Virus record (IMG/VR): IMGVR_UViG_3300037762_000162
Location: 1 to 51,258 of that record
DNA length: 51,258 bases
Source of the DNA: a virus
Taxonomy: Duplodnaviria; Caudoviricetes
Direction: 5' to 3' (one strand)
This document shows positions 4,101-31,922 of the stretch, piece after piece; position 1 is the first letter of the stretch; each line of letters starts with the position of its first letter. The notes below the pieces were generated by a model that saw only the letters and a program-made list of their open reading frames with translations, did no database searches and had not been told where the DNA came from. The translations under genes were made by a program, and so were the position numbers.

Positions 4101-5687
4101 TCAGGTCGTGTTCTGCCAGACCCGCGGATACCGGCTGGCGGTCACACCCCCGCCGGAGAACCGGTGAGTCAGGGTCTGGTACTCGTCGCCGGTGCCTTCC
4201 GATCCGCCCTGGGCTATCCCACAGTTCCCGTATGGGATCTTGTGCCCGGTGGTCGCCGACCCGTCGCCGTTGAACCCGAACAGGTTGCGGCCGTTGAAGT
4301 TCAGCCGCGCCTTCCGCTGGTCGTTCGTGGTGCCACCGTCCATCTGGATCAGCGACTGCGACGGCGACGACCCGGTGGTGCCGAGGATCTGGCAGCTGGT
4401 CATCGCGATCTTGTGCTGGACGATGACCTCGTTGGTGTCGATGGTGCAGCGGATGATGCCCCGCTTGCCGGCTTCTTCGGTGGCCCCGGCGATGGTCTCC
4501 AGCAGCGCACCCGACTCCCAGTGGATGGTGTCCATGTGGCACATCACCTGGTGAGTGTTCGCGGTGCCCGCCAGGGCGTGGACCCCGGCGTCGAAGTGGG
4601 CGAATCCGTTGCCGCCGGGGCCGACGTCGTAGGTGACGTCGCGGATGGACAGGAATGACTGTCCGGCGATCTTCATGTAGAGGGCGTAACCGGAGATGTA
4701 GTCCCACCGGCCGCCGCGGATCCAGAAGTTGGTCGCGCCGATGCCTTCGCAGGAGATGGCGTTACCGGCGAACCCACCCATGTGGACTTCGTCGAGGCCG
4801 GTGCCGGAGTCGATCTTCGCCCCATTGACGCCGGACGGGCCGAACCGGATGGCAGTGTTCGCCGGTGTCGGCCCGGCGGCGAACCGCACGTTGCGGAACA
4901 GCGCCGCCTGGAGATTGTTACCGGACGCCTCGCTGTTGAACATCAACCCGCCGCCGGCGCCGCCCCACACGATGTTGGGCAGGTTCACCACCTGGTTGCC
5001 GCCGATTGCGCCGACACCCCACGTCCACACCGAGTTTTTCGTCAGGTCCGGCTGGCATTCGATGGTGTCGGTGATCTGGTAGGTGCGGCCGCCGGGGAAC
5101 ACCACCACACCGAACCCGCCGGCCTGTTGCGCCGCCGTATACGCGGCCTGAATGGCCACGGTGTCGTCGGTGCCGCCGCCGGAGTTGTGGTGCGAGTCGC
5201 CGACCGCGCCGTACTCGAGCACGTTGTGCGCCTGGAAATCGGACGACGGGATGGTCAGCCGCTTGTCGGTGATCTGGTTGGCGGCGATGGTCGACCCGGA
5301 GGTGTGCCCGTTGGGCACGTACACGTCGGCGATGACGGTCCGCGAGCTCGGGATGGCCGGCATCAGCGGCACCGCGCCGGGGGTGCCGACGACACTGGAC
5401 TTCGCCCCGGTGGCGTCGACGGTGACTAGGTCCCGGCGGGGGTTCCCGGAGGAGTTGGAGGTGATGGCCACGTTCCCAGCGGCGACGTTGACGTATACCC
5501 CGTCGACGACTCCCAAGCCGGCAGCCACGGCCACCGACCCGTTCGCTGCGCCGGTTGGGGTGACCCCACAGCCGGAGGCCACTCCGGAGCGGGAGTTCCC
5601 GGCTGCGAGGATCGCCACGTCGGTGGAGTTGACCATCGCCTGCGCGGTGAACCCGGCGTCGCCGACATTCGGGATGGTGAACGGCAC
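4101..5687 (-). CDS. Tailspike/depolymerase-like beta-helix protein (pectate_lyase_3-like)
   Basis: NVLEYGAVGD...DDTVAIQAA...VVVFPGGRTYQITDTI start-of-beta-helix signature. Confidence 0.8.
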   Translation of the reverse strand: MPFTIPNVGDAGFTAQAMVNSTDVAILAAGNSRSGVASGCGVTPTGAANGSVAVAAGLGVVDGVYVNVAAGNVAITSNSSGNPRRDLVTVDATGAKSSVVGTPGAVPLMPAIPSSRTVIADVYVPNGHTSGSTIAANQITDKRLTIPSSDFQAHNVLEYGAVGDSHHNSGGGTDDTVAIQAAYTAAQQAGGFGVVVFPGGRTYQITDTIECQPDLTKNSVWTWGVGAIGGNQVVNLPNIVWGGAGGGLMFNSEASGNNLQAALFRNVRFAAGPTPANTAIRFGPSGVNGAKIDSGTGLDEVHMGGFAGNAISCEGIGATNFWIRGGRWDYISGYALYMKIAGQSFLSIRDVTYDVGPGGNGFAHFDAGVHALAGTANTHQVMCHMDTIHWESGALLETIAGATEEAGKRGIIRCTIDTNEVIVQHKIAMTSCQILGTTGSSPSQSLIQMDGGTTNDQRKARLNFNGRNLFGFNGDGSATTGHKIPYGNCGIAQGGSEGTGDEYQTLTHRFSGGGVTASRYPRVWQNTT

Positions 5688-17070: not shown

Positions 17071-17661
17071 TCATGCCGCGGCCTCCAGGTGGGCCAGCAG
17101 CTGGGCGCCGATATACTCGGTGAACACCGGGGGGACCGCTTCGCGGGCTTCGCGGTTGGTCATCCACCCGCAGCCCATGGCGTCGGCGTAGGCCCGTTCG
17201 CCCTTGTGCATGAACGGCAGCAGCCCGCGGTGGTCGCAGGGGGTGGTGAGTTGGATGCCCGACCATGACGTCTCGAACCAGCGGTGTCGGCGCACCGCGA
17301 GCCCGAACGCGGAGCCGCAGAGCATGAAGTGTGGGCGCAGCGGCGCGGAGGGGACGTTCTCCATCACCCACGGGACGCCGGCCGCCTGCAGTCGTTCCCG
17401 GATGGTGGGGATGAGGTCGGCGTGGTCGTCGGCGCTGCCGCGCCACCGCGTGACGGGGGCGTAGTGCTGGCAGGGTGGGCTGGCGTGGATGACGTCGAAC
17501 CCGTCCAGCGGGTAGGTGAGCGCGTCGGCCTGGTGGAACTCGTACGGGTACCGGGGCTGGGGCCGGTTGTCGACGCCGACCACCGTGAACCCGGCGCGGT
17601 GGTAGCCGACGGAACAGCCGCCCGCCCCGCAGAACAGGTCGAGGAGCCGGGGGCGGGTCAT
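17071..17661 (-). CDS. Short C5-cytosine DNA methyltransferase
   Basis: LDLFCGAGG (motif I), SPPCQ (IV), ENV (VI), R.R (VIII), EAVPP (X). Confidence 0.88.
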   Translation of the reverse strand: MTRPRLLDLFCGAGGCSVGYHRAGFTVVGVDNRPQPRYPYEFHQADALTYPLDGFDVIHASPPCQHYAPVTRWRGSADDHADLIPTIRERLQAAGVPWVMENVPSAPLRPHFMLCGSAFGLAVRRHRWFETSWSGIQLTTPCDHRGLLPFMHKGERAYADAMGCGWMTNREAREAVPPVFTEYIGAQLLAHLEAAA

Positions 17662-17765
17662 GGCCACCGCCGGTTGCGTAGCCACTGCCGGCATCCCCAC
17701 CAGCCGATGAGGCCGCCGGCGAACAGGACGCCGACCCAGATGAGCAGACACTGCGCGGCGGTCAC
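17658..17765 (-). CDS. Small single-TM protein (35 aa)
   Basis: MTAAQCLLIWVGVLFAGGLIGWWGCRQWLRNRRWP; overlaps both neighbours. Confidence 0.6.
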   Translation of the reverse strand: MTAAQCLLIWVGVLFAGGLIGWWGCRQWLRNRRWP

Positions 17766-18025
17766 GGGTCTGTCTCCAGGTAGACGACCTCAACGTCGGC
17801 GGGGTTATAGGTCACCCAGTCGGGGGTCGCTTCGGTGCCGATGTTGACCTCGTACGCATAGATGCGTTCCCGTGCGGCGGCGACCTGGGCGTCGGCGTAC
17901 CGCAGCACCACCGGCAGCACAGCGTCGGCCAGAATGCTTGGCAGCACTTCAGGCGCCTCGAGCATCGGCATTACCAGCGCTGCAGCCAGTTCGTCGCGGA
18001 GTGTGTCGTGCGCCCCCCCGGTCAC
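17762..18025 (-). CDS. Hypothetical protein
   Basis: GTGA-coupled ORF. Confidence 0.65.
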   Translation of the reverse strand: MTGGAHDTLRDELAAALVMPMLEAPEVLPSILADAVLPVVLRYADAQVAAARERIYAYEVNIGTEATPDWVTYNPADVEVVYLETDP

Positions 18026-21261: not shown

Positions 21262-21909
21262 ATGCAACCAGCGGGGGATGGCCGCGAACTGCGGCTGCAA
21301 CTGAAGGAACTGCTCCAGCGGGCCGACCGTCTCGCCTTACTGATTCAGCAGGCCGAAGCACCCAGACACGCCGCCGACCGCCCGAGACTGACGCTGATCC
21401 ACGGCGGGAAGGCGTTGGTGTTGGCGCCGGTGATGTGGGTGTGGGCGACCTTCCGTGAGAACGCGAAGGCTTCCACTTTCGCCGCTGCCGGGCTACTGGC
21501 GGTGCCGACGACGCTGGGTGTGGGTGTGGCTACTCCGGAGATCCACCCGGGGGCACCACCAGTATCGACCGCGCCACGTCAGGTAGACGAACAGCCGGAG
21601 CTGCGGCCGACGTCGTTCGCGTCGCTGCCGCGCCCGCCAACGCCAACCCCCACGCCGACGCCCACCGAGACGGCCGAGGCGGTGAAGTCGGAGGCGCTAC
21701 CCCCCGTGTCTCCGGCTCCCGTCTCGGTCCCGGCCCCTGTCTCGACACCGACACCGACACCGACATCGACACCGACCGCCCCCGTTGTCGAGGAGGTGGT
21801 GTGGACGAGGACGACGGCGCTGGTCCACTGCCGCGACGTGCTCGAGGTGCCGGCGGCGGACCTGCAGGACTGCGTGCAGGAACTACTAGCGGGCTCTAGC
21901 GGAGGGTGA
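21262..21909 (+). CDS. Membrane-anchored Pro/Thr-rich protein
   Basis: N-terminal coil, hydrophobic segments, PTPTPT linkers, C-terminal Cys pair. Confidence 0.75.
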   Translation: MQPAGDGRELRLQLKELLQRADRLALLIQQAEAPRHAADRPRLTLIHGGKALVLAPVMWVWATFRENAKASTFAAAGLLAVPTTLGVGVATPEIHPGAPPVSTAPRQVDEQPELRPTSFASLPRPPTPTPTPTPTETAEAVKSEALPPVSPAPVSVPAPVSTPTPTPTSTPTAPVVEEVVWTRTTALVHCRDVLEVPAADLQDCVQELLAGSSGG

Positions 21910-21982
21910 AGGAATCGAACCCTCAGGCGTTACCCTGGCCAGGTTTTCGGGACCTGTTGCCGACCATTCAGCGCCACCCTCC
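21900..21982 (-). tRNA. tRNA-Ser(CGA), atypical C33
   Basis: GGAGGGT/ACCCTCC acceptor, CAGGT-CCCGAAA-ACCTG anticodon arm, long variable arm, GGTTCGATTCC T arm, G discriminator. Confidence 0.85.
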
Positions 21983-21985
21983 CAG

Positions 21986-22069
21986 CGGAGAGGGCGGGAC
22001 TCGAACCCGCGACGCCACGAGGACGCTACGCCTTAGCAGGGCGCTGCCTTACCGCTCGGCCACCTCTCC
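21986..22069 (-). tRNA. tRNA-Ser(GCT)
   Basis: GGAGAGG/CCTCTCC acceptor, GCGCC-CTGCTAA-GGCGT anticodon arm, long variable arm, GGTTCGAGTCC T arm. Confidence 0.92.
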
Positions 22070-22130: not shown

Positions 22131-23363
22131 CTACTCCGGCTCGAGCTCCAGTAGCCGTCCCAGCCGGGCTGCCGCGTCGTGCGCCGCCTCAGCAGATAGG
22201 TGTTGGTAGCGCCGCGCAGCAACCACGGTGGAATGGCCGACCATCTGCATGATCTCGTTCTCCGGCACTCTCAACGCCATCAGCGCCGACACGCACGTAT
22301 GCCGGGCGGAGTGGACGGTCACCGCCGGCAGGCCGAGGCGGGCGAGCAGCTGCCGCCACTCCTCGTAGTCTTCGCGTAGGTCCACCGGCCGGCCCCCGTT
22401 CCGCGACCACACCAGGCCATGCCGCCCGGGCGGGTGCTGTTCGCGGTGCCGGCCCAGCCACGCCACCAAAGCGCCGGTCAGCGGGACCATCTTCCGCCGG
22501 CCGCCCTTGGGTCGGGTCAGGCAGAGCGCCCCGTCGAGGACGACGTGCTCCCGGGACGGCCGCACCGCCAAGCGGCGGTAGGGGCAGTCCCCGCCGTGCC
22601 GGCGCCCACAGGGCGGGTCGCAGCCGTGCTCGTAGGGGACCCGGGTCAACGACCAGGCAATGTCCGCCAGCCCGTTGTCGAGGTCGACGTGCGACCACCG
22701 CAAACCGAGGCACTCGCCCTGCCGTTGCCCGGTCAGCAGCCCGAACGCCCACCTGGATCCGTACGGGTCGTCGACCACGGCGCGGAGCAGGGTGGCCGCC
22801 TGGACGACATCAAGGAACTCCGGCTGATAATGGCCGGCTGAGGGGCGGTCCACCATCTGCGCCGGGTTGCGGGTGATGAACCCCATCCGCATGGCGTCGC
22901 GCAGGGCCCGGGACAGTACGGCGTGCGCGCGGAGGACAGTGGATTCCTCGAGCATGCCCTGGCCGCGGGCCTTCGGCTGGTTCCGCAGCGTCTGGTGCAG
23001 GGCGACGATGTGGGCGGGGGTGAGTTTGTCGAGGCGGTGTCGGCCGATGTGCGGGATGAGGTGCCGGTCGACGTAGGAGCGGTGTGAGGCCAGGGTGCGG
23101 GGGGCGACCCGCTGGGCGGCGATGTCGTCGAGCCAGCGGCGCAGCCACTCCCCGGTCGTGGGGATGTCGGCGCCGAAGGAGGCGCCGGCGTCGAGGTCGC
23201 GTTGCGCCTTCCGCAGTTTCGCCACCACGTCGGCCTTCGTTTTGCCGGAGAAGGTGCGCCGGCGGCGTCTGCCTTTGTCCCAGCCGAGCTCCAACGCGGC
23301 GATCCAGTAGCCGTCGGTGCGCCGGTACACCGCGCCGGAGCCGTAGTCGCGGCGACGAGTCAT
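22131..23363 (-). CDS. int: Tyrosine integrase
   Basis: G.G.VY.R.DG.W arm-binding domain; catalytic R (GQRQGE), K, HSAR, GHS, Y (RYQH); Cys-rich insertion. Confidence 0.95.
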   Translation of the reverse strand: MTRRRDYGSGAVYRRTDGYWIAALELGWDKGRRRRRTFSGKTKADVVAKLRKAQRDLDAGASFGADIPTTGEWLRRWLDDIAAQRVAPRTLASHRSYVDRHLIPHIGRHRLDKLTPAHIVALHQTLRNQPKARGQGMLEESTVLRAHAVLSRALRDAMRMGFITRNPAQMVDRPSAGHYQPEFLDVVQAATLLRAVVDDPYGSRWAFGLLTGQRQGECLGLRWSHVDLDNGLADIAWSLTRVPYEHGCDPPCGRRHGGDCPYRRLAVRPSREHVVLDGALCLTRPKGGRRKMVPLTGALVAWLGRHREQHPPGRHGLVWSRNGGRPVDLREDYEEWRQLLARLGLPAVTVHSARHTCVSALMALRVPENEIMQMVGHSTVVAARRYQHLSAEAAHDAAARLGRLLELEPE

Positions 23364-23497
23364 GGCCGGCGTCGCCTTCCGATGCGCCACACATGGTCGC
23401 GGCGAACGAAGTGGCCGACAGTAATCCCGGCACCCACGATCGCGACGGCAAGAGCAATCGCAACAGCCAAGGCCGTCAGGAACTCGACCAGGGTCAC
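23360..23497 (-). CDS. Small single-TM protein (45 aa)
   Basis: MTLVEFLTALAVAIALAVAIVGAGITVG...RRRRP; couples upstream gene to integrase. Confidence 0.65.
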   Translation of the reverse strand: MTLVEFLTALAVAIALAVAIVGAGITVGHFVRRDHVWRIGRRRRP

Positions 23498-23766
23498 GGC
23501 TCGGTCACCTCACGTTCTTTGCGCAATGCGGCGAGAGCCTCCTGCGCTTCGGCAATGAACCGCTCCAGCTCGGCGACGGCCTCGGTGTGAGAGACCCCGT
23601 CCGCATAGGCCCTGCCCGCGGAGATCACCCACTCGTCGCACTGATGGGGCAGTGAGACTCGCCAGAGTCCTTCGGGATGCGGGTACTTGGTCAGCGTGCC
23701 GTCGACGACCGGTTCGCCATAGAGGTGGTCCGTCCGTTGGACGGTGAAACCGAACGGCTGTGTCAT
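23494..23766 (-). CDS. Hypothetical protein
   Basis: GAGGAG RBS before ATG 23766. Confidence 0.7.
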   Translation of the reverse strand: MTQPFGFTVQRTDHLYGEPVVDGTLTKYPHPEGLWRVSLPHQCDEWVISAGRAYADGVSHTEAVAELERFIAEAQEALAALRKEREVTEP

Positions 23767-23799
23767 TCCCCGCTCCTCACCCTCTAGTAGAGGTTGATT

Positions 23800-23885
23800 G
23801 TAGCCATTTGAATGGCTACCAATCTGAGGACAGCCTACCAGAGTTTGTGCCATGTTTGTGCCACGGGTAGACATGTGTAGCCATG
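23800..23885. repeat. Candidate integrase arm-type/accessory binding sites
   Basis: GTAGCCATT-TG-AATGGCTAC inverted repeat (23800-23819), GTTTGTGCCA x2 (23843-23863), GTAGCCAT (~23877). Confidence 0.6.
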
Positions 23886-23924
23886 TGTGAAAGACTGTGC
23901 CCATGAGCGTGACCTGCGGAAACG

Positions 23925-23973
23925 GGAGCCGCCTGCGGGATTCGAACCCGCGACCTACGCATTACGAGTGCGT
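23925..23973 (-). other. attP common core = 3' half of tRNA-Thr(CGT)
   Basis: ACGCA-CTCGTAA-TGCGT anticodon arm, T arm and 3' acceptor strand but no D arm or 5' strand; near integrase; flanked by ACCTGCGGAAAC direct repeats. Confidence 0.88.
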
Positions 23974-24063
23974 CGGTCCACACGGCGCACGTGCCGCCTC
24001 ACCTGCGGAAACACAACCCTGTGATGCACTTTCGACAGCCATCCCGGCAGCCAAGGAGACCTC

Positions 24064-24219
24064 ATGACCTTCCTCAGCGAGCTCGCCCGCATCCTCGGCA
24101 AAGCGTCCGTGTACAGCCGGGACGCCAACGCGGTCGCCCGCGGCCGGCTGCTCGAGCGGCTGGCGAACCGGGTCATGGGGCGGGCGGTGTCGCGGGGGAT
24201 GCGGAGGCTGTGGCAGTGA
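24064..24219 (+). CDS. Small basic amphipathic protein (51 aa)
   Basis: AAGGAG RBS; MTFLSELARILGKASVYSRDANAVARGRLLERLANRVMGRAVSRGMRRLWQ. Confidence 0.7.
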   Translation: MTFLSELARILGKASVYSRDANAVARGRLLERLANRVMGRAVSRGMRRLWQ

Positions 24220-24422
24220 ACCAACTGGTGCGTTGTCTGCATTGTGGAGGGACCTACGACCTCGGCAAGGTGACCGTCGTGGCCCGCTATACCGATTGTT
24301 CCGTCTGGCGCACGCCCTGCTGCGATCTCACCGTTGATGACCGTGGGGAGACTGGCTGGAAATCAAAACGCGACTATGAACGCATCGACGAGTCCTCGCC
24401 TTGGGGCTCGGGAACCGGCTGA
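24216..24422 (+). CDS. Small zinc-ribbon protein
   Basis: GTGA overlap; CLHC...PCC. Confidence 0.7.
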   Translation: MNQLVRCLHCGGTYDLGKVTVVARYTDCSVWRTPCCDLTVDDRGETGWKSKRDYERIDESSPWGSGTG

Positions 24423-24493
24423 TCGGGCGGGCGTGGACCACGTTCATGCGAGGGAAATGGCTGTGATGGCTGACGGCCGACCGAAGGAGACCC

Positions 24494-24688
24494 ATGAGTG
24501 ACGCGCAGCGGCTGTCCCGCCTCCTATTCGAGGCCCGCGAACTCATCGACATGATGGGCGACATAGTCGAGGCCCGCTCCGGTCGACCCGATACGTGGAG
24601 CCGCCGGGTGCGCGACGAGATCGACACCTACCGCGCCGAGCAAGGCTGGTCGCCGCACGGATTCGGCGATGAGACAGCGCGGCCATGA
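24494..24688 (+). CDS. Hypothetical protein
   Basis: AAGGAG RBS. Confidence 0.7.
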   Translation: MSDAQRLSRLLFEARELIDMMGDIVEARSGRPDTWSRRVRDEIDTYRAEQGWSPHGFGDETARP

Positions 24689-24861
24689 TTCCCATGATCC
24701 CGACCCGGCGAGACATAGACGTGCTGGTGGCTGTTGGGCAGATGTACCTGCAAGCCCTCGACGACGATCCCGAGAACGAATACCTCATATTGCCCGAGGC
24801 CATGCTGGTAACCGAGGTCTGCGAGGCAGTCGAACGACTGGGCGGGAAGGTTGACCAGTGA
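24685..24861 (+). CDS. Small hypothetical protein (58 aa)
   Basis: ATGA overlap; MIPMIPTRRDIDVLVAVGQMYLQALDDD... Confidence 0.6.
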   Translation: MIPMIPTRRDIDVLVAVGQMYLQALDDDPENEYLILPEAMLVTEVCEAVERLGGKVDQ

Positions 24862-24879
24862 CCCTTGTGACGTCGTAAG

Positions 24880-25323
24880 TTAGCCCTCGCCCCGGTCCGT
24901 CTCGTCGGCTTGGTGGATCATTCGCCGCACCCACGCCGACCGGTTCGGCTTCCCGTCCAGGTGGATGATGCCGTCGCGTCGGGCCAGCCGGTCCACGATC
25001 GCCTTCTCGGCGTCGGTGAGCTTCACACACACGGTTACGGCATCCGGTGTCTCGAGGTCATCGACGGTGATCGGCGGGCAGTCGATGCAGCGGGCGGCAT
25101 GCGCCACAAGCGCATCCCATGTGGTCCAGGCGGATAGTGCTCCATTACCTGGGCGGCTGCGCCAGTCGACGTGACGCATGGCGAAGTTGCAGCTTCGGCA
25201 CAGCACGCCGCGGACCCAGCCATGAGCGTGGCAGTGATCCATGACTGGGTTCTGGCTGGAGCCGCAGACGATGCAGACGGCATCTGCGATGAGTGGCTCA
25301 TGCTCGCCGTAGAGGACCGGCAC
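24880..25323 (-). CDS. Endonuclease VII-like domain fused to RHH-like domain
   Basis: CIVC...MDHCH.HGWVRGVLCRSCN; C-terminal VTVCVKLTDAEKAIVDRLA...NRSAWVRRMI; GTG overlaps upstream TAG. Confidence 0.75.
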   Translation of the reverse strand: MPVLYGEHEPLIADAVCIVCGSSQNPVMDHCHAHGWVRGVLCRSCNFAMRHVDWRSRPGNGALSAWTTWDALVAHAARCIDCPPITVDDLETPDAVTVCVKLTDAEKAIVDRLARRDGIIHLDGKPNRSAWVRRMIHQADETDRGEG

Positions 25324-25496
25324 TAGTACCCCTTCTTCTTGAGCCACTCGGCGACGGCGGCCTTGATCTGATCGGTCAGCGTGACGCCGGTGTCGGCCCG
25401 GTAGCGGCCCATTCTCTTGTGTAGGTCGGCTGGGATCTCTGCATGTAGCGGGCGGGTCTCCGGCTGGGGGCCGGCCTGATCGGGGTCGGTGCCCAC
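25323..25496 (-). CDS. Ribbon-helix-helix DNA-binding protein (57 aa)
   Basis: Hand translation MGTDPDQAGPQPETRPLHAEIPADLHKRMGRYRADTGVTLTDQIKAAVAEWLKKKGY; AAGGGAG RBS. Confidence 0.8.
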   Translation of the reverse strand: MGTDPDQAGPQPETRPLHAEIPADLHKRMGRYRADTGVTLTDQIKAAVAEWLKKKGY

Positions 25497-25529
25497 GGCG
25501 GGTCTCCCTTGCTGCCATGCTCGTCAGAG

Positions 25530-25557
25530 TGTACATCTGTACAGGTGAACAAGTACC
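25530..25557. promoter_or_regulatory. Operator-like repeats in a divergent promoter region
   Basis: TGTACA-tc-TGTACA-gg-TGAACA-AGTACC, 8-bp period. Confidence 0.6.
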
Positions 25558-25578
25558 GTCATGCGCGGAGGTACTGAC

Positions 25579-26379
25579 GTGGCGCAGAATACCGATACCG
25601 GCCGCGACTGGTGGCGGATACTGCAGTGGCCGCTGCTCGTCGCATCCGCCGGCGTCGCCGCCTGGGTGTCCTACACCCAACAGCGGCAGCTCGGTATCTA
25701 CGTCGGCTGGGACTCCCCGTGGGGGCTGCCGGTCATCCTCGACGGCCTCGCCGCCGCCACCCTGCTGTCCTACATCCGGAAACCGGCGCCGTTCAACCGG
25801 GTGGTATCCACCCTCGTCATCGCCACCGCAGTCGTCGGGAACGCGCAGGCCGCCATCTACGACCCGGCCACCGCCGACCTGCCCGCCCCGCTGTGGGCGG
25901 TCATCGCGTGGAAGGTGCTGCCGCCGGTGGCGGTGTTCACGATCGCCCACTACATCGCCCACGAACGGCAGGAGACCGGGATATGGGTACCGAAGTCCTC
26001 CTCCGCCCCCGCAGAAACCGCCGCCCCCCGCGCCCTCTCACCCGATGGGGACGGTTCGCGTACTGCGTCGCCTTCGGCCACTCGACGAAACGGCGCGCGT
26101 ACTGCACCCGCTGCCTCCGCCTCCGCCTCGAAGGCCGCCTCGCGGTCGAAGCAGCGAACCGACTCCGAGCTGGCCGCGTTGACAGTGGCCGAGCAGTGGT
26201 CGACATTGAGTGGGGACCAGCTGGCGGAGAGGCTGCACGTGGCGAAGGGCCGCGCGTTGCGGGTCCGGAACTTGGCCCGGGCGCAGCCGGCAGGGCAGCC
26301 CTCGAGGCCGCACCCGGCGGCGGCGACTAACGGCGGAGTCGGCCCGGGCGGCACGGGGACGCTGACCGAGACCGGGTAG
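25579..26379 (+). CDS. DUF2637/Spd-like multi-TM protein with C-terminal HTH
   Basis: GGAGG RBS; about four TM segments with SY...LP..LDG...GN...PP pattern; low-complexity linker; LSGDQLAERLHVAKGRALR HTH. Confidence 0.75.
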   Translation: MAQNTDTGRDWWRILQWPLLVASAGVAAWVSYTQQRQLGIYVGWDSPWGLPVILDGLAAATLLSYIRKPAPFNRVVSTLVIATAVVGNAQAAIYDPATADLPAPLWAVIAWKVLPPVAVFTIAHYIAHERQETGIWVPKSSSAPAETAAPRALSPDGDGSRTASPSATRRNGARTAPAASASASKAASRSKQRTDSELAALTVAEQWSTLSGDQLAERLHVAKGRALRVRNLARAQPAGQPSRPHPAAATNGGVGPGGTGTLTETG

Positions 26380-26385
26380 ATCGCG

Positions 26386-28161
26386 GTGCCCGACTTCGTG
26401 CAGACCGCGCCGTACGACGGGTCCGCTCGCGGCATCGTCCGCGGCATGGGCCGCAAGTGGGCGGCGACACACGACTTCCTGTACCTCACCTGGCGGACCG
26501 TCCGGTGGTTGTTCAAGCGGCCGATCACGTGGCCGGGGATGGTCGCCGGGGGCTGGTTGTGGTCCCGGGGTGTTCCGTTCTGGCTGGTTCTGCCGCTGCC
26601 GTTGGCGCCGCTTATTTGGCGGGCGGATAAGTCCCAAGTGTGGTTGTTCGGCTCCGCGCTGCGGAGCCGCAGCCTAACACGGGGGGCGAATACGCTGTCA
26701 AATTGGTGGCGCATTCGGCGTGGCTGGTCCACCGGAACTCGAGCGGTCGGGTTCGCACAATCAGGCAAAGGCGGACAGGTCCCGTGGCTGCGTCATTGGG
26801 AGTTGACAAACTCCGGGATGGCCGCGTGGGTGACGTGCGGAACGTTCGGGTGGTCGGCGGACGACTTGGCGACCAGGGCGCAGACGATAGCGGCGGGCAT
26901 CAACCGTTGTAGAGGAGTGACTGTCACACAAGGCGACTACCCGGGGGTCGCCCGGTTGGACTTCGCGTTCTCCGACCCGCTGGCTGACGTGTTGTCGGTG
27001 GCTGAGTTGGCGGCCGCGCCGAGGGCACGGCTGACCTGCGGGTTGACCGAACGGGGCGACCCGGCCTACCTGCACAACTACCTGTCGACGCTGGTCGTGG
27101 GCCTGCCCGGGTCCGGCAAGTCGAACATGCTGTGGACGCTGATCCTGTCCGCGTTGGCGGCCGGGGAGCCGTTCGAGTTGTGGGTGCTGGACCCGGCCGG
27201 CGGGGTCGAATTGTGGGAACTGTCGAACGGTTCACCGCTGGTCCGGGACTATGCGGCGTCACCGGCTGAGATGAAACGGCTGGTGAAGGATCTGCACACG
27301 AAGATGATTGAGCGGATGAATACCATGGCCGGGAAGGAGCGGTTGCATACTCCGACGAAGGAGGCGCCCCGCTGGTATCTGGTTGTCGACGAGGCCATGC
27401 GTGCGTGGAACCAGTTGAAGAAAACCGGTGGCAACGGGCCGAACCATCAGCAGATGCTGGTGGAGATACTGTCCCTCGGCCGTAAGGCTGCTATCACCAC
27501 GATCGCGTTGACGCAGATACCGTTCGGGCATGCGATCGGTGAACAGGTGCGGCTGCTGTTCCCGCAGAAGGTGGTATTCCGGTCCAACGACTGGTTGGTG
27601 ACGAATACCGCATTCGGTTCCGGGTCGGAGGCGTTGGGTGCGGCGGCGTCGAAGATCTCCGTCCGCACCCCGGGGGTGGGGTACATGATCGGCGATACCG
27701 ACACCCGGCCGGTGCGGTTCCGCACCCCGTTCATCTCCGACTTCATGACCACTTTGATCGCTAAGGGGATGCTGCCGGACGGTATCCCCACAACTGCCGG
27801 GGCCGGCCAGTCGTGGCACAACAACGAGCATGTGCTGTACCGGTGGGACACCCCGCCGGAGGGTGTCGAGCTCGACGGGAAGACCTACATCGGTGTGCTG
27901 TACGTCGGTATCAGCGTCGACGGGTTGCAGCGGGCCGACCAGCACCTGTCGAACGAGGCGAAGGCGGTGCTGCGTTCGCCTGGGGTGACGATGACGATTG
28001 TGGAACGGTTCAACGTCGAGTCGCATTCGGCGGAGGTTGAGGCGGGGAAGACGGTCCGGCAGGTGGCGCTGGAGGTGGAGGCCCCGATGATCGGGCAGCT
28101 GGGGCCGCCGCTGAACATCGCCCACAACGGCCGGCGTAGGCGGAAGGCGGTCGAAGCATGA
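26386..28161 (+). CDS. FtsK/SpoIIIE (TraB-like) DNA translocase with C-terminal GIY-YIG nuclease domain
   Basis: N-terminal hydrophobic anchor; Walker A GLPGSGKS, Walker B LVVDE, LGRKAAI...TQ; C-terminal VLYRW...LYVGIS...R..QH...E..MI...P.LN. Confidence 0.85.
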   Translation: MPDFVQTAPYDGSARGIVRGMGRKWAATHDFLYLTWRTVRWLFKRPITWPGMVAGGWLWSRGVPFWLVLPLPLAPLIWRADKSQVWLFGSALRSRSLTRGANTLSNWWRIRRGWSTGTRAVGFAQSGKGGQVPWLRHWELTNSGMAAWVTCGTFGWSADDLATRAQTIAAGINRCRGVTVTQGDYPGVARLDFAFSDPLADVLSVAELAAAPRARLTCGLTERGDPAYLHNYLSTLVVGLPGSGKSNMLWTLILSALAAGEPFELWVLDPAGGVELWELSNGSPLVRDYAASPAEMKRLVKDLHTKMIERMNTMAGKERLHTPTKEAPRWYLVVDEAMRAWNQLKKTGGNGPNHQQMLVEILSLGRKAAITTIALTQIPFGHAIGEQVRLLFPQKVVFRSNDWLVTNTAFGSGSEALGAAASKISVRTPGVGYMIGDTDTRPVRFRTPFISDFMTTLIAKGMLPDGIPTTAGAGQSWHNNEHVLYRWDTPPEGVELDGKTYIGVLYVGISVDGLQRADQHLSNEAKAVLRSPGVTMTIVERFNVESHSAEVEAGKTVRQVALEVEAPMIGQLGPPLNIAHNGRRRRKAVEA

Positions 28162-28271
28162 TCTGTCTGTGTGACGGTTATGTCTTTATTGGTTTTGGGG
28201 ATCCTTATTGTGATGCTTGCGGGCATATTGACGAGGCACATGACGGCGAAACTTGCAGTATCGAGACGTAG
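28158..28271 (+). CDS. Cys/His-rich micro-protein (37 aa)
   Basis: ATGA overlap with translocase stop; MICLCDGYVFIGFGDPYCDACGHIDEAHDGETCSIET. Confidence 0.6.
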   Translation: MICLCDGYVFIGFGDPYCDACGHIDEAHDGETCSIET

Positions 28272-28282
28272 AACGCACGAAG

Positions 28283-28355
28283 GCCGCCCCCCGGCCTGCA
28301 GGGAGGCCAGGGGGCGGCGGGGTAGCCGGGACAGGGTCGAGGTGTGCCCGGCTAC
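28283..28355 (-). terminator. Double hairpin between convergent late operon and translocase operon
   Basis: 15-bp stem 28283-28297/28304-28318 (G-U on - strand) and 9-bp stem 28322-28330/28347-28355. Confidence 0.7.
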
Positions 28356-28624
28356 GTCACAGGGATCGACGACGCCGGCGGCGACAGGGTTTCAGCGGTG
28401 CCGACACCTGGGCCGCGTTGGGTGGCGCTGTGCGTGGCCACCGACGTGAGCACCGAGACGAGGGTGGCGATCGCGGACACCGACGCGATCCCCGCCCAAT
28501 CCAACGACTCGATGTATTCGATGCCCAATCCGTTGCCGACGATGAGCGCGGCGGCGGTCTGGCAGAACGTCTTAATGGCCCGCTCGAGCGTGGCCGCCCA
28601 GAACGTCTTGGTGAAGATGCTCAT
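28352..28624 (-). CDS. Holin (r1t-like)
   Basis: [23 protein letters not shown]...DW...A.L.SVLTS. Confidence 0.88.
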
Positions 28625-29262
28625 GGGGTGCTCCCTTCTTGTCCTGGCGGGAACCGGCACGGCCCGGCCACGGTTTGGGTGGTGTCGTCGGTGAATGTGA
28701 TCAGCCAGTTGCTGTCGTCGCCGCAGGCGACGGTCACGATGCCGCGACCCGGCGCGCCGTCTGCGCCTGCTGGTCCTGCAGGTCCGGCGGGCCCTTCGGG
28801 GCCGACGATCGACTCACCGGAAGCGCCGTCCGCGCCGGCTGCCCCGTCGGCGCCTGCTGGGCCGGCTGGGCCGACACCGCCGGGTAGCCCTTGTGCGCCG
28901 GCCGGTCCGACCGGTCCGGGTGGGCCGACGTCCCCGGTGAATCCGCGCGGCCCTGTCGGGCCTTCCGGGCCGCGGGGTCCGACCGGTCCGGGCACCGGCT
29001 CGGTCGGCTGTTCGGCGATGTCCTCGGCCTGCCGGCAGATGTCGAAGTCGACCGCGACAGCCGGGTTCTCGCATTCGGCTTGCACCTGCTCGGCCAGCGA
29101 CACCGCGTTCGCTGCGGAGGTTTCACCTGCGGTCTGGATTTGCGCCCGGTTGACGAACAGCCAGATGACGGCGATGACGACCAGCGCCAACACGGCCAGA
29201 ATGCCGACCACCAGGCGGTGGACGCTGCGTTCGGTGTGCTGGTCGGCCTCATGTGTTCCCAT
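28621..29262 (-). CDS. Membrane-anchored collagen-like protein
   Basis: N-terminal TM; about 27 Gly-X-Y triplets. Confidence 0.85.
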
Positions 29263-30808: not shown

Positions 30809-31621
30809 TCAGGTGTGGATGAGGCATTTGGGTGCGGCCGCGATCCGGGCGAACAGCGCCGGGCTGGAGTGCTGGCCGATGGCGTAGGAGTGCGGCGGCG
30901 CCCACGCCCCGTACACGCGGCAGGCGTTGACCACCCGGTCTCGGATGCCGGCGTTGGTGGGGTAGTCCCACGACTCGGCCACGGTAGACAGCCGGGTGTC
31001 GGCCCAGTAGGCGGACAGGATGTAGTAGCGGGGGGTGTTGAACCGGGCCGGGTCGCCGGTGCCCGCCAGCCACGCCACTGCGCCGCCGGCGGCGAGATGA
31101 TCCTTGTGGTTGTCCACCTTCGGAGAGTGGGTTTTCAGCCACACCGGCCCCCCCGGGTTGATCGCGTCGGCGACCTTGCGGATGGCGTCGACCGCGGCCC
31201 ACGGACCCACGGCGTCGGCTGGCAGCCCGGCGTGGTGGATCGTTACCGGGCCCAGGCCGGTGGCGAGGCAGGCGACGGCACGGTCGGCCTCGTTCAGACG
31301 GTGCTGCCCGAAGGTGGCCGGGTCCAGCGGTGTGTACCCTTCGGCGGCCGGGTCGTGGCGGACCCGCCACCACGAGCTCACATACTCGCCGTTCACAGCT
31401 GCGCGCGCCCCGGAGGTGCGCCCGTCGGTGAGGATGAGGACGTGGGTGTCGATGCCGGCGGCGACGTGTTCGGCGATGGCGACACCCATGGCCAACGTTT
31501 CGTCGTCGGGGTGGGCGGCGATGAACAGTGCCGGTGTCGCCACAGCCGCCGCCTCCCTAGGTAGCAGCGTGGATGCGGCGACCGCGGCGGCGCCGGTGAG
31601 CAGGGTGCGCCGGCCGATCAT
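30809..31621 (-). CDS. PIG-L/LmbE family deacetylase with Tat signal peptide
   Basis: MIGRRTLL...EAAA signal; AHPDDE, LTDG, HKDH motifs. Confidence 0.88.
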   Translation of the reverse strand: MIGRRTLLTGAAAVAASTLLPREAAAVATPALFIAAHPDDETLAMGVAIAEHVAAGIDTHVLILTDGRTSGARAAVNGEYVSSWWRVRHDPAAEGYTPLDPATFGQHRLNEADRAVACLATGLGPVTIHHAGLPADAVGPWAAVDAIRKVADAINPGGPVWLKTHSPKVDNHKDHLAAGGAVAWLAGTGDPARFNTPRYYILSAYWADTRLSTVAESWDYPTNAGIRDRVVNACRVYGAWAPPHSYAIGQHSSPALFARIAAAPKCLIHT

Positions 31622-31631
31622 CCGCGGATGT

Positions 31632-31922
31632 TCATGTGACACGCCCCACCTGGGGCATCGGGTGGCTCGTCTTCGGCTCGCCCCAGTCAGGTTCGGGGTG
31701 ACACGTGTATCCCGACGCAACGGCGATGCAGTTAGCAATGAACGGCACCACCTGCTGCACGACCTGAACGTCCAATTCGACGCACATCCGCCGGTCAAGC
31801 ATCAAGAGCACTCGGCCGCCGGGCTGCATGGTCGCCTGCAGGAGTGGAACCTGCCGACCATGGACGACGACGTCATAGGCCTCGAAGGGACCCACGAACT
31901 CAACCGGATCAGTCACTGTCAT
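31632..31922 (-). CDS. Hypothetical protein
   Basis: ATGA-coupled ORF. Confidence 0.65.
   Translation of the reverse strand: MTVTDPVEFVGPFEAYDVVVHGRQVPLLQATMQPGGRVLLMLDRRMCVELDVQVVQQVVPFIANCIAVASGYTCHPEPDWGEPKTSHPMPQVGRVT

Follow-up and report, generated by a model that had tools for sequence, protein, structure and literature searches.

The DNA analysed here, referred to as the window, spans an entire IMG/VR virus record (51,258 bp, linear, CheckV completeness 92%) from a siphovirus-type temperate phage, and the subject of this report is a plus-strand two-gene operon at 25561–28161, located between the attP/int region and the lysis cassette on the strand opposite to the lytic genes. The first gene (25561–26379, plus strand) encodes a DUF2637-type integral membrane protein of 272 aa, and the second (26386–28161, plus strand), separated from it by a gap of 6 nt, encodes a 591-aa protein, hereafter the translocase-nuclease, in which an N-terminal membrane-associated region, an FtsK/SpoIIIE-type motor and a C-terminal GIY-YIG nuclease domain are joined in a single chain. 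GC content at third codon positions (GC3) is 0.86 in the first gene and 0.84 in the second, and genes with coding-type third-position GC (0.82–0.96) occupy the window throughout.

A preliminary description of the locus, made from the sequence alone, had placed a self-contained plus-strand operon between attP and a lysis terminator, and this placement was borne out. On the left, a tRNA-like attP fragment (~23924–23986, minus strand) adjoins the integrase gene; on the right, a GC-rich hairpin (28283–28318; 15-nt arms, 93% complementary, 6-nt loop) lies between the convergent operon end and an r1t-type holin gene (28352–28660, minus strand, 1.8e-17), and is a likely bidirectional terminator.

Domain organisation of the translocase-nuclease and its kinship with Tra proteins

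The N-terminal membrane-associated region comprises residues 1–106 (26386–26703, plus strand), with a hydrophobic segment at 62–80, and helices are found at residues 14–121 in an AlphaFold2 (AF2) model. At least one N-terminal hydrophobic segment is predicted in 94/95 GIY-YIG-bearing relatives with a complete N-terminus, and in 20/20 Tra proteins of AICEs (the integrative and conjugative elements of actinomycetes), and the region is probably inserted in the membrane. The motor (residues ~107–470; 26704–27795, plus strand) was identified by a PF01580 match on the 591-aa protein (2.7e-9; score 37.2 bits, cut-off 24), and carries a Walker A motif, G244-K245-S246 (27115–27123), and a Walker B pair, D335-E336, of which G244, K245, D335 and E336 are invariant in 149 aligned sequences. 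The AF2 model generated from this 149-sequence alignment is confident (predicted local distance difference test, pLDDT, 92.7; predicted template-modelling score, pTM, 0.80), and has the fold of an FtsK motor: Foldseek matched it to the DNA-bound FtsK motor (6t8b/6t8o) and to TcpA (6o1w), which is a coupling protein in conjugation, at E ~1e-14 to 1e-15, with template-modelling (TM) scores by target of 0.61–0.67 over ~380–400 columns (6t8b_A: E 5.6e-14, TM 0.67, 402 columns). NCBIfam gave only weak EccC-domain matches to the ATPase, far below cut-off, and no helix-turn-helix family and no DUF4041 match was found by Pfam in the 591-aa protein.

For the C-terminal domain (residues 478–588; 27817–28149, plus strand), the match to PF01541 is weak on the whole protein (E 0.04–0.09), and the isolated window domain matched at 5.5e-4 and 4.6e-3, below cut-off; PF01541 was found in 3/3 when the window domain was taken together with its counterparts from two relatives in other phages (best 6.5e-11). 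Y485, Y506, G508, R516, H520, E565 and N577 are the same in all 49 sequences of an alignment (the window protein and 48 relatives, 23–82% identity), and the roles, order and spacing of Y485, Y506, R516, H520, E565 and N577 are, we take it, those known from I-TevI and UvrC. Because these residues are invariant at 23–82% identity, selection on nuclease activity is argued for. A three-sequence domain profile compared with the PDB returned UvrC N-terminal and UPF0213 GIY-YIG structures first (E 0.02–0.05), and the domain of one relative is 47% identical to annotated mycobacteriophage GIY-YIG endonucleases. At the level of sequence, the GIY-YIG identity of the domain is secure and a catalytically intact nuclease is the best explanation of it, so that the TraB/FtsK–GIY-YIG fusion named in the preliminary description stands on both of its halves.

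Relatives were collected by a word-indexed search of 5.8 billion clusters, which returned 8 proteins at 40–99% identity, all metagenomic, so that close relatives are rare, and by an exhaustive profile search of 1.84 billion representatives, which returned 192 proteins at E ≤ 1e-30. A classified set (n = 189) was assembled from the best 150 of these 192, other proteins met in the analysis, AICE Tra and Kitasatospora proteins; a C-terminal GIY-YIG domain was present in 115/189, in 0/20 AICE Tra and in 0/8 Kitasatospora proteins. Locus searches of the viral, genome and metagenome collections with the window ATPase, or with the alignment of its close relatives, returned no loci; a locus search with the protein P0030 was equally empty, and one with P0036 yielded just a distant locus, L016. 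Among BFVD matches, A0A4D6E4V2 and A0A8S5RUZ7 aligned over 510–582 columns and might be similar fusions.

When 401 Actinomycetes genomes, drawn evenly across the class, were searched for the ATPase family, strong matches (E ≤ 1e-30) were obtained in 69, often several per genome; the fusion was not found in these 401 genomes, every match ending at model position ~450–473, before the nuclease domain. At 20 genomic places that were fetched, the ATPase gene was recovered at 19 (L067 was missed), and 19/19 products matched pMR2 Tra (1e-74 to 1e-96). The neighbours of these 19 homologues (149 ORFs of 155 within 4.5 kb) included 15 Phage_integrase, 13 RepSA, 7 GntR and 6 NUDIX matches, with no phage structural family among the 25 most frequent, and the 19 genes are in classical AICEs of the pSAM2/pMR2 type, a Tra subfamily that Ghinet et al. 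2011 (PMC3218068) name. Five Kitasatospora genomes gave weaker matches only (best 7.4e-27), namely AICE-like Tra proteins and, at ~1e-11, the chromosomal FtsK.

Trees were built on 361 motor-core columns, with FastTree and with a quick search in IQ-TREE, the supports of both being optimistic. With FastTree (185 rows), all 111 GIY-YIG-bearing rows and 21 rows without the domain formed one clade (local support 97), and the sister clade (support 81) united 24 further unfused rows with every one of the 20 AICE Tra rows. IQ-TREE (LG+G4, 80 rows) produced the same split (SH-like approximate likelihood ratio test, SH-aLRT, 91 and 90; union 98), and placed other Kitasatospora Tra-like proteins, pIJ101 Tra and chromosomal FtsK outside both clades. 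The TraB-type homology claimed earlier was thus sustained by phylogeny, in that the window ATPase clade is, in both trees, sister to, not within, the pMR2-type clade of 20/20 AICE Tra rows. Most of the unfused rows in the fused clade (17/21) end ≤46 residues after the motor, being either truncated or truly without the domain, and the fusion looks like one old, monophyletic event on the lineage next to AICE Tra.

The likeness to Tra of pMR2/pSAM2-type AICEs (TraSA) covers the N-terminal hydrophobic region, which in the window protein aligns with AICE Tra from model position ~30, and the FtsK-type motor (pMR2 Tra against the window, phmmer 7e-24). It ends with the motor: AICE Tra have tails of 4–113 residues without GIY-YIG, where the window protein has its nuclease domain, and the window gene lies in a tailed phage that has no RepSA. 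Searched against all six frames of the window, pMR2 Rep matched nothing, and of the pMR2 genes only Tra and Int match the window. TraB of pSVH1 and pIJ101 belongs to the same superfamily (hhalign against pIJ101 Tra: probability 98.5%, E 3.8e-15, 298 columns), and pIJ101 has, like the window, a divergent repressor beside its tra operon (GntR in pIJ101, RHH-like in the window, for ribbon-helix-helix); unlike the window protein, pIJ101 Tra has a clt-recognition end, is only 20% identical and lies outside both clades. In a 2015 account (Thoma 2015, PMC4447253), TraB is described as forming hexamers with a central membrane channel, its C-termini recognising clt and its translocase domain pumping the plasmid. 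A search of 23380–28700 for a clt-like direct repeat array found none, only two-copy families of chance size, the motif of this clade not being known. For the translocase-nuclease, the best explanation is a ring-forming translocase of double-stranded DNA, of AICE Tra ancestry, whose C-terminal recognition end was apparently exchanged for GIY-YIG.

Phage contexts of the fusion and its membrane partner

The fusion was seen only in metagenomic contigs, and all three recovered contexts (the window, L017 and L078), which fall in different subclades, are phages, one of them complete with terminal repeats. L017 is an IMG/VR contig of 35,886 bp (83% complete) with the order DUF2637, fused gene (P0020), trypsin-like protease and large terminase. 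L078 is part of G412, an 82,914-bp record with direct terminal repeats (100% complete), in which NUDIX and DUF932 genes come before the fused gene (P0028), and after it genes for a phage zinc-binding protein, a methyltransferase and tail-type proteins; ~1.9 kb immediately upstream of the fused gene (8100–9970 of L078) is without a coding-type ORF and contains short frames that are Asp/Glu/Arg-rich or repetitive. The genes of G412 include those for DNA polymerase A, ThyX, thymidylate synthase, dCMP deaminase, Prim-Pol/D5, WhiB and a C-5 methylase; searches for tyrosine and serine integrases (PF00589, PF00239) gave no match in it, and its gene set is apparently that of a virulent-type actinophage. 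For ten further fused proteins, the longest contig copies measure 2–83 kb (7/10 >33 kb). The family is large, with 111 fused rows among the proteins examined, so far from uncultured phages only.

An unfused form is also carried by phages: in contig L016, which encodes a terminase, a Mu-type portal and a protease, an FtsK-like gene without the nuclease (819–2246) lies just upstream of the terminase gene and groups with the AICE clade, so that phages carry both forms, fused and unfused. A packaging role, considered since the gene stands beside the terminase in L016 and L017, was rejected, each of these phages and the window having its own terminase. None of five viral records related to the window by portal protein carries the ATPase, 4/5 of these records being <90% complete.

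Among cultured phages, a megablast search with 24400–28400 returned no match. By tblastn, the window protein matched 24 phage records at ≤46% query coverage and <30% identity, all of them Bacillus and Xanthomonas phage FtsK-like genes and none extending into the nuclease domain; a second query, P0025, matched only free-standing GIY-YIG genes, and the motors of both queries were unmatched among actinophages. Cultured phages (Bastille-like Bacillus phages and Streptomyces phages) do encode FtsK/SpoIIIE-like proteins, with which the window protein shares phage encoding and an unexplained role (PHROG 1358 at 9e-23), and FtsK-like genes in Streptomyces phages are noted in two papers (PMC13587820, PMC10117723). 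In open-access papers and bioRxiv, an FtsK/Tra–GIY-YIG fusion was not found in print. What appears to be new here is a conjugative translocase turned translocase-nuclease and carried by phages; FtsK-like and Spd-like phage genes were already known.

The membrane protein encoded upstream has hydrophobic segments at 20–38, 54–72, 81–100 and 107–133, followed by a low-complexity linker and a conserved, helix-rich C-terminal tail. The window protein itself gave no direct Pfam match at E ≤ 0.1; PF10935 is precomputed on 2/7 of its homologues and is matched by the L017 counterpart at 3.7e-9, and in a protein atlas DUF2637 clusters were its best feature and structure matches, the structure match (TM 0.43) being good enough by the atlas's standard to assign a name. 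The preliminary description had called it Spd-like. Its form agrees with that, four hydrophobic segments encoded beside a tra-like gene, as in the four-helix SpdB2, which according to Thoma 2015 (PMC4447253) is foremost among the Spd proteins that work with TraB in intramycelial spread; kinship with SpdB was not found, an hhalign comparison of the family (7 rows) with pIJ101 SpdB giving a probability of 0.3%, and the protein is probably DUF2637-type. A DUF2637 protein is annotated by NCBI in the spd region of AICE pMR2, between tra and rep, and hhalign of the family against it gave no match, a weak comparison of a 7-row alignment with a single sequence.

DUF2637 is common in Actinomycetes genomes (29/151), and an ATPase of the window-relative type lies within 1.5 kb in just 1/30 DUF2637 loci, so that its adjacency in phages is not simply inherited from AICEs; nor is it among the 25 most frequent families around the 19 AICE Tra genes. 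It adjoins the fused gene in 2/3 phage contexts and, because the complete phage G412 lacks it, the adjacency is not universal. Prediction of a complex between the translocase and the DUF2637 protein gave no verdict (score 0.00). Almost nothing on DUF2637 was found in print in the same open-access and bioRxiv literature.

Possible functions of the translocase-nuclease

The operon is tentatively proposed to encode a membrane-anchored translocase-nuclease that destroys incoming DNA; the broader claim, that the protein destroys rather than delivers DNA, is somewhat probable. The N-terminal helices would hold the motor at the cytoplasmic membrane, an FtsK-type ring, presumably hexameric, would load on double-stranded DNA and thread it using ATP, and nuclease heads on the same ring, if cutting is coupled to pumping, would cut the DNA in passage, with degradation and not delivery as the outcome. 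The most likely substrate would be DNA at the membrane with a free end, either a superinfecting phage genome or double-stranded DNA arriving by Tra-type conjugation, and the module, with the DUF2637 protein as a putative partner at the membrane, would serve exclusion or defence and be expressed under a small divergent repressor of its own. Nuclease heads on a ring motor that lacks a recognition domain make the design of a DNA shredder, and the position of the operon, on the opposite strand with its own divergent regulator and between lysis and attP/int, would suit expression apart from the lytic programme.

This reading is favoured by the motor-plus-nuclease relatives that surfaced (HerA–NurA, SIR2–HerA, DndH and MADS mad8), since these are DNA-processing or defence machines. 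They were reached through Foldseek matches (8woc, 9x1m, 4d2i, 7es4) and a PADLOC match to mad8 (7.2e-11), the latter on the ATPase alone, the other 7 module proteins matching no mad model. Like the window protein, they join a nuclease or effector to a ring ATPase from the superfamily of the window motor; unlike it, they are cytoplasmic and use separate subunits or other nuclease folds, where the window has a single membrane-anchored chain. Destruction of incoming DNA is likewise favoured by SNIPE, a published analogue of form, described as a protein anchored in the membrane whose C-terminal domain is GIY-YIG and which cuts lambda DNA as it is injected (bioRxiv 10.1101/2025.11.03.685801). The order of membrane anchor, middle DNA-engaging module and C-terminal GIY-YIG is common to both; SNIPE has one transmembrane helix and DUF4041, has no ATPase and is bacterial, whereas the window protein has an FtsK motor and is phage-borne.

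Several points weigh against the proposed function. The fusion is found in a complete 82.9-kb phage with a virulent-type gene set and no integrase found, and hence lysogeny cannot be a condition for its function; in L017 the two genes are just upstream of the terminase gene and co-oriented with it, and expression there may be late. Gene neighbourhoods differ in all 3 contexts, with DUF2637 adjacent in 2/3, and the 3 contexts recovered stand against 111 fused rows. The N-terminus is conserved with AICE Tra, kin of the TraB described as channel-forming, and a mere anchor would not require such conservation. PADLOC found no complete known defence system among the module proteins, and the phage would have to spare its own DNA in some way.

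The same anatomy could instead serve lytic growth, with the motor reeling in the nucleoid or resident-element DNA, the nuclease nicking or cutting it, phage DNA spared by modification or timing, and host shut-off and nucleotide recycling as the outcome. A motor with a low-specificity nuclease needs no recognition domain for this, and T4 endonuclease II, the initiator of host DNA breakdown, is a GIY-YIG enzyme. The complete virulent-type phage encodes, beside the fusion, ThyX, thymidylate synthase, dCMP deaminase and a C-5 cytosine methylase, and the window phage too has a C-5 methylase domain. Neither the membrane anchor, conserved in 94/95 relatives, nor the DUF2637 partner is needed in that role, however, and the window operon, which runs divergently to the lytic genes with a repressor-like gene to itself, is laid out in a way that suits expression apart from the lytic programme; degradation of host DNA is thus an unlikely explanation. 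A selfish homing-endonuclease insertion, fused by chance to a phage Tra-like gene and without joint function, is very improbable. Free-standing GIY-YIG endonucleases are common in actinophages, the domain of one relative is 47% identical over ~70 residues to those of 100 mycobacteriophage/Gordonia phage records, and a second nuclease-type insertion adjoins the operon, in the form of an endonuclease VII segment absent from related contigs. Homing endonucleases, however, need a DNA-binding extension, and the window domain is a bare catalytic core of ~100 residues without one; the fusion is retained, with invariant catalytic residues, in all 111 fused rows of one clade, to ~23% identity, and AF2 gives one confident multi-domain model (pTM 0.80).

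The preliminary description had preferred a phage that also spreads as DNA. Taken further, this reading would have the translocase, with the DUF2637 protein as partner, move the phage genome, without virions, through hyphal cross-walls, into spores or into a mating partner, while the nuclease opens or linearises the DNA and so provides an end for ring loading. In its favour, pMR2-type AICE Tra form the sister group of the motor clade, and the N-terminus aligns with them from model position ~30; the host genus is probably Kitasatospora, which grows as a mycelium; DNA might be bound by the DUF2637 tail; and in the phage contig L016 an AICE-type Tra without the nuclease is encoded beside the terminase. 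Thoma 2015 (PMC4447253) also notes Spd homologues in phages phiC31 and VWB, and suggests a role in spread for them. Features that such transfer would draw on were nevertheless not found: the clt-reading end is gone, replaced by the nuclease, and a search of 23380–28700 gave no clt-like repeat array; there is no RepSA; the membrane partner is unlike pIJ101 SpdB and DUF2637 is absent from the complete phage G412, which carries the same fusion and gave no integrase match. With a nuclease tied to it, the pump would, moreover, cut its own cargo, and every motor–nuclease relative that surfaced degrades or processes DNA. Virion-free spread is accordingly quite unlikely, and the membrane-bound ATPase–nuclease, offered in the preliminary description as an alternative, fits the anatomy better.

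If the translocase-nuclease does pump and cut at the membrane, a phage would have in it a new means of keeping rivals out, foreign DNA would be told by its place and manner of appearance and not by its sequence, and a conjugation motor would have been converted into a weapon. If it instead moves DNA between hyphal compartments, this would bear on the 2015 idea for Spd-like phage genes and on phage life in multicellular hosts, and virion-free spread, if true, would give the virus a second, virion-free route of spread. Either way, module exchange between AICEs and phages goes beyond integrases.

Flanking genes and the phage that carries the operon

Upstream of the operon, the preliminary description had named divergent RHH regulators. 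Two divergent minus-strand genes are present, at 25323–25496 and 24880–25338; an RHH character is suggested for the product of the former by sequence pattern only, and that of the latter is mainly an endonuclease VII protein. The 25323–25496 gene (minus strand, GC3 0.86) encodes a 57-aa putative RHH regulator, for which no match was obtained in Pfam (E ≤ 0.1), PHROGs, NCBIfam or PADLOC and the best PDB match had E 0.29. The 24880–25338 gene (minus strand) encodes 152 aa from the first plausible start, with an endonuclease VII domain (Pfam Endonuclease_7 5.9e-9; PHROGs endonuclease VII families down to 1.1e-9) that the preliminary description had not reported, and for this gene the label of RHH regulator was dropped; a weak RHH_1 match at its C-terminus (E 0.05) is below cut-off. 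The divergent intergenic region of ~64 nt contains TGTACA-type hexamer repeats (TGTACATCTGTACAGGTGAACA, 25530–25551) that a palindrome overlaps, a putative operator. A sigma-70-type promoter search of 23300–28800 gave no match.

In a contig of a related phage from run X3, 25032–25585 is replaced by 79 letters, and a matching joint was found in run X2. The replaced segment contains the endonuclease VII part of the 24880–25338 gene, the 57-aa gene and the TGTACA repeats, and in the X3/X2 relatives the membrane-protein gene is faced by a short gene for the RHH-like C-terminal tail alone. The regulator region thus varies, with an insertion in the window that has the look of a cassette of nuclease and regulator joined in frame to a small, older gene of RHH-like type. 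Between attP and the module lie four small plus-strand ORFs (24064–24219, 24216–24422, 24494–24688, 24685–24861) with start/stop overlaps; that at 24216–24422 is Cys-rich (CxxC...CC), and no family match was obtained for any of the four in 24064–24861.

At the 3' end, a 114-bp AT-rich island (28158–28271, plus strand) carries a Cys/His-rich ORF of 37 codons; its ATG shares bases with the stop codon upstream (ATGA), and it had been described as a zinc micro-peptide. That description was not supported: GC by codon position is 0.53/0.42/0.45, the GC3 of 0.45 comparing with 0.84–0.86 in the neighbours, no family match was obtained in Pfam, PHROGs, NCBIfam or PADLOC, and in one X3 contig (depth 3.5) of a closely related phage 28132–28262 is replaced by 24 other letters. 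The ORF is doubtful as a gene and, translated or not, does not appear to be a conserved part of the module.

Other genes of the phage, on the minus strand, include those for the portal (PF04860, 1.3e-52), capsid and tape-measure proteins, a tyrosine integrase (22131–23390, PF00589, 3.8e-15), an amidase_2 lysin and a PIG-L-type deacetylase in the lysis region, a replication-type 684-aa protein (AAA_25) left of the integrase, a PD-(D/E)XK domain protein in the left part of the window and a C-5 cytosine methylase domain (17071–17793, 1.2e-7). The portal is at most ~28% identical to those of deposited phages. A C-5 methylase domain occurs in both the window phage (1.2e-7) and G412 (2.1e-17), and is a possible self-protection partner of the nuclease, as a lead only.

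At the attP fragment, ARAGORN called a 95-nt tRNA-Ala (23924–24018) and Rfam a tRNA at 23927–23986 (33.6 bits against a gathering score of 29); its anticodon loop was tentatively read by eye as CGT (Thr). A 48-nt attP core has exact matches in 10 genome records, 10/10 of them Kitasatospora, and because it matches Kitasatospora only, the likely host is a mycelial member of the Streptomycetaceae, the growth habit of Kitasatospora being mycelial. Module DNA is present in sediment metagenome runs, one with all sampled words, from which the record probably derives, and three with 37–63%. The window integrase is close to the integrases of two AICEs, L069 and L076 (phmmer 3.5e-68 and 5.6e-68), so that the integration module is likewise common to the phage and AICEs. 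Just downstream of the integrase gene, at 21899–22069, are two neighbouring tRNA-Ser genes (anticodons cga and gct), the second of which Rfam called as tRNA (63.4 bits) and the first only as tRNA-Sec-like, below the gathering score.

Within the lysis region, 28621–29262 encodes a membrane-anchored protein with collagen-like Gly-X-Y repeats, through which tail-fibre PHROGs were matched, and 30809–31798, beside the amidase lysin, the PIG-L-type de-N-acetylase (1.3e-16). A minus-strand ORF at 362–2137 matches no Pfam family, its length of 591 aa equalling that of the translocase by coincidence, and a 528-aa ORF at 4101–5687 with a pectate-lyase-like domain (3.2e-6) may encode a tail or depolymerase protein.

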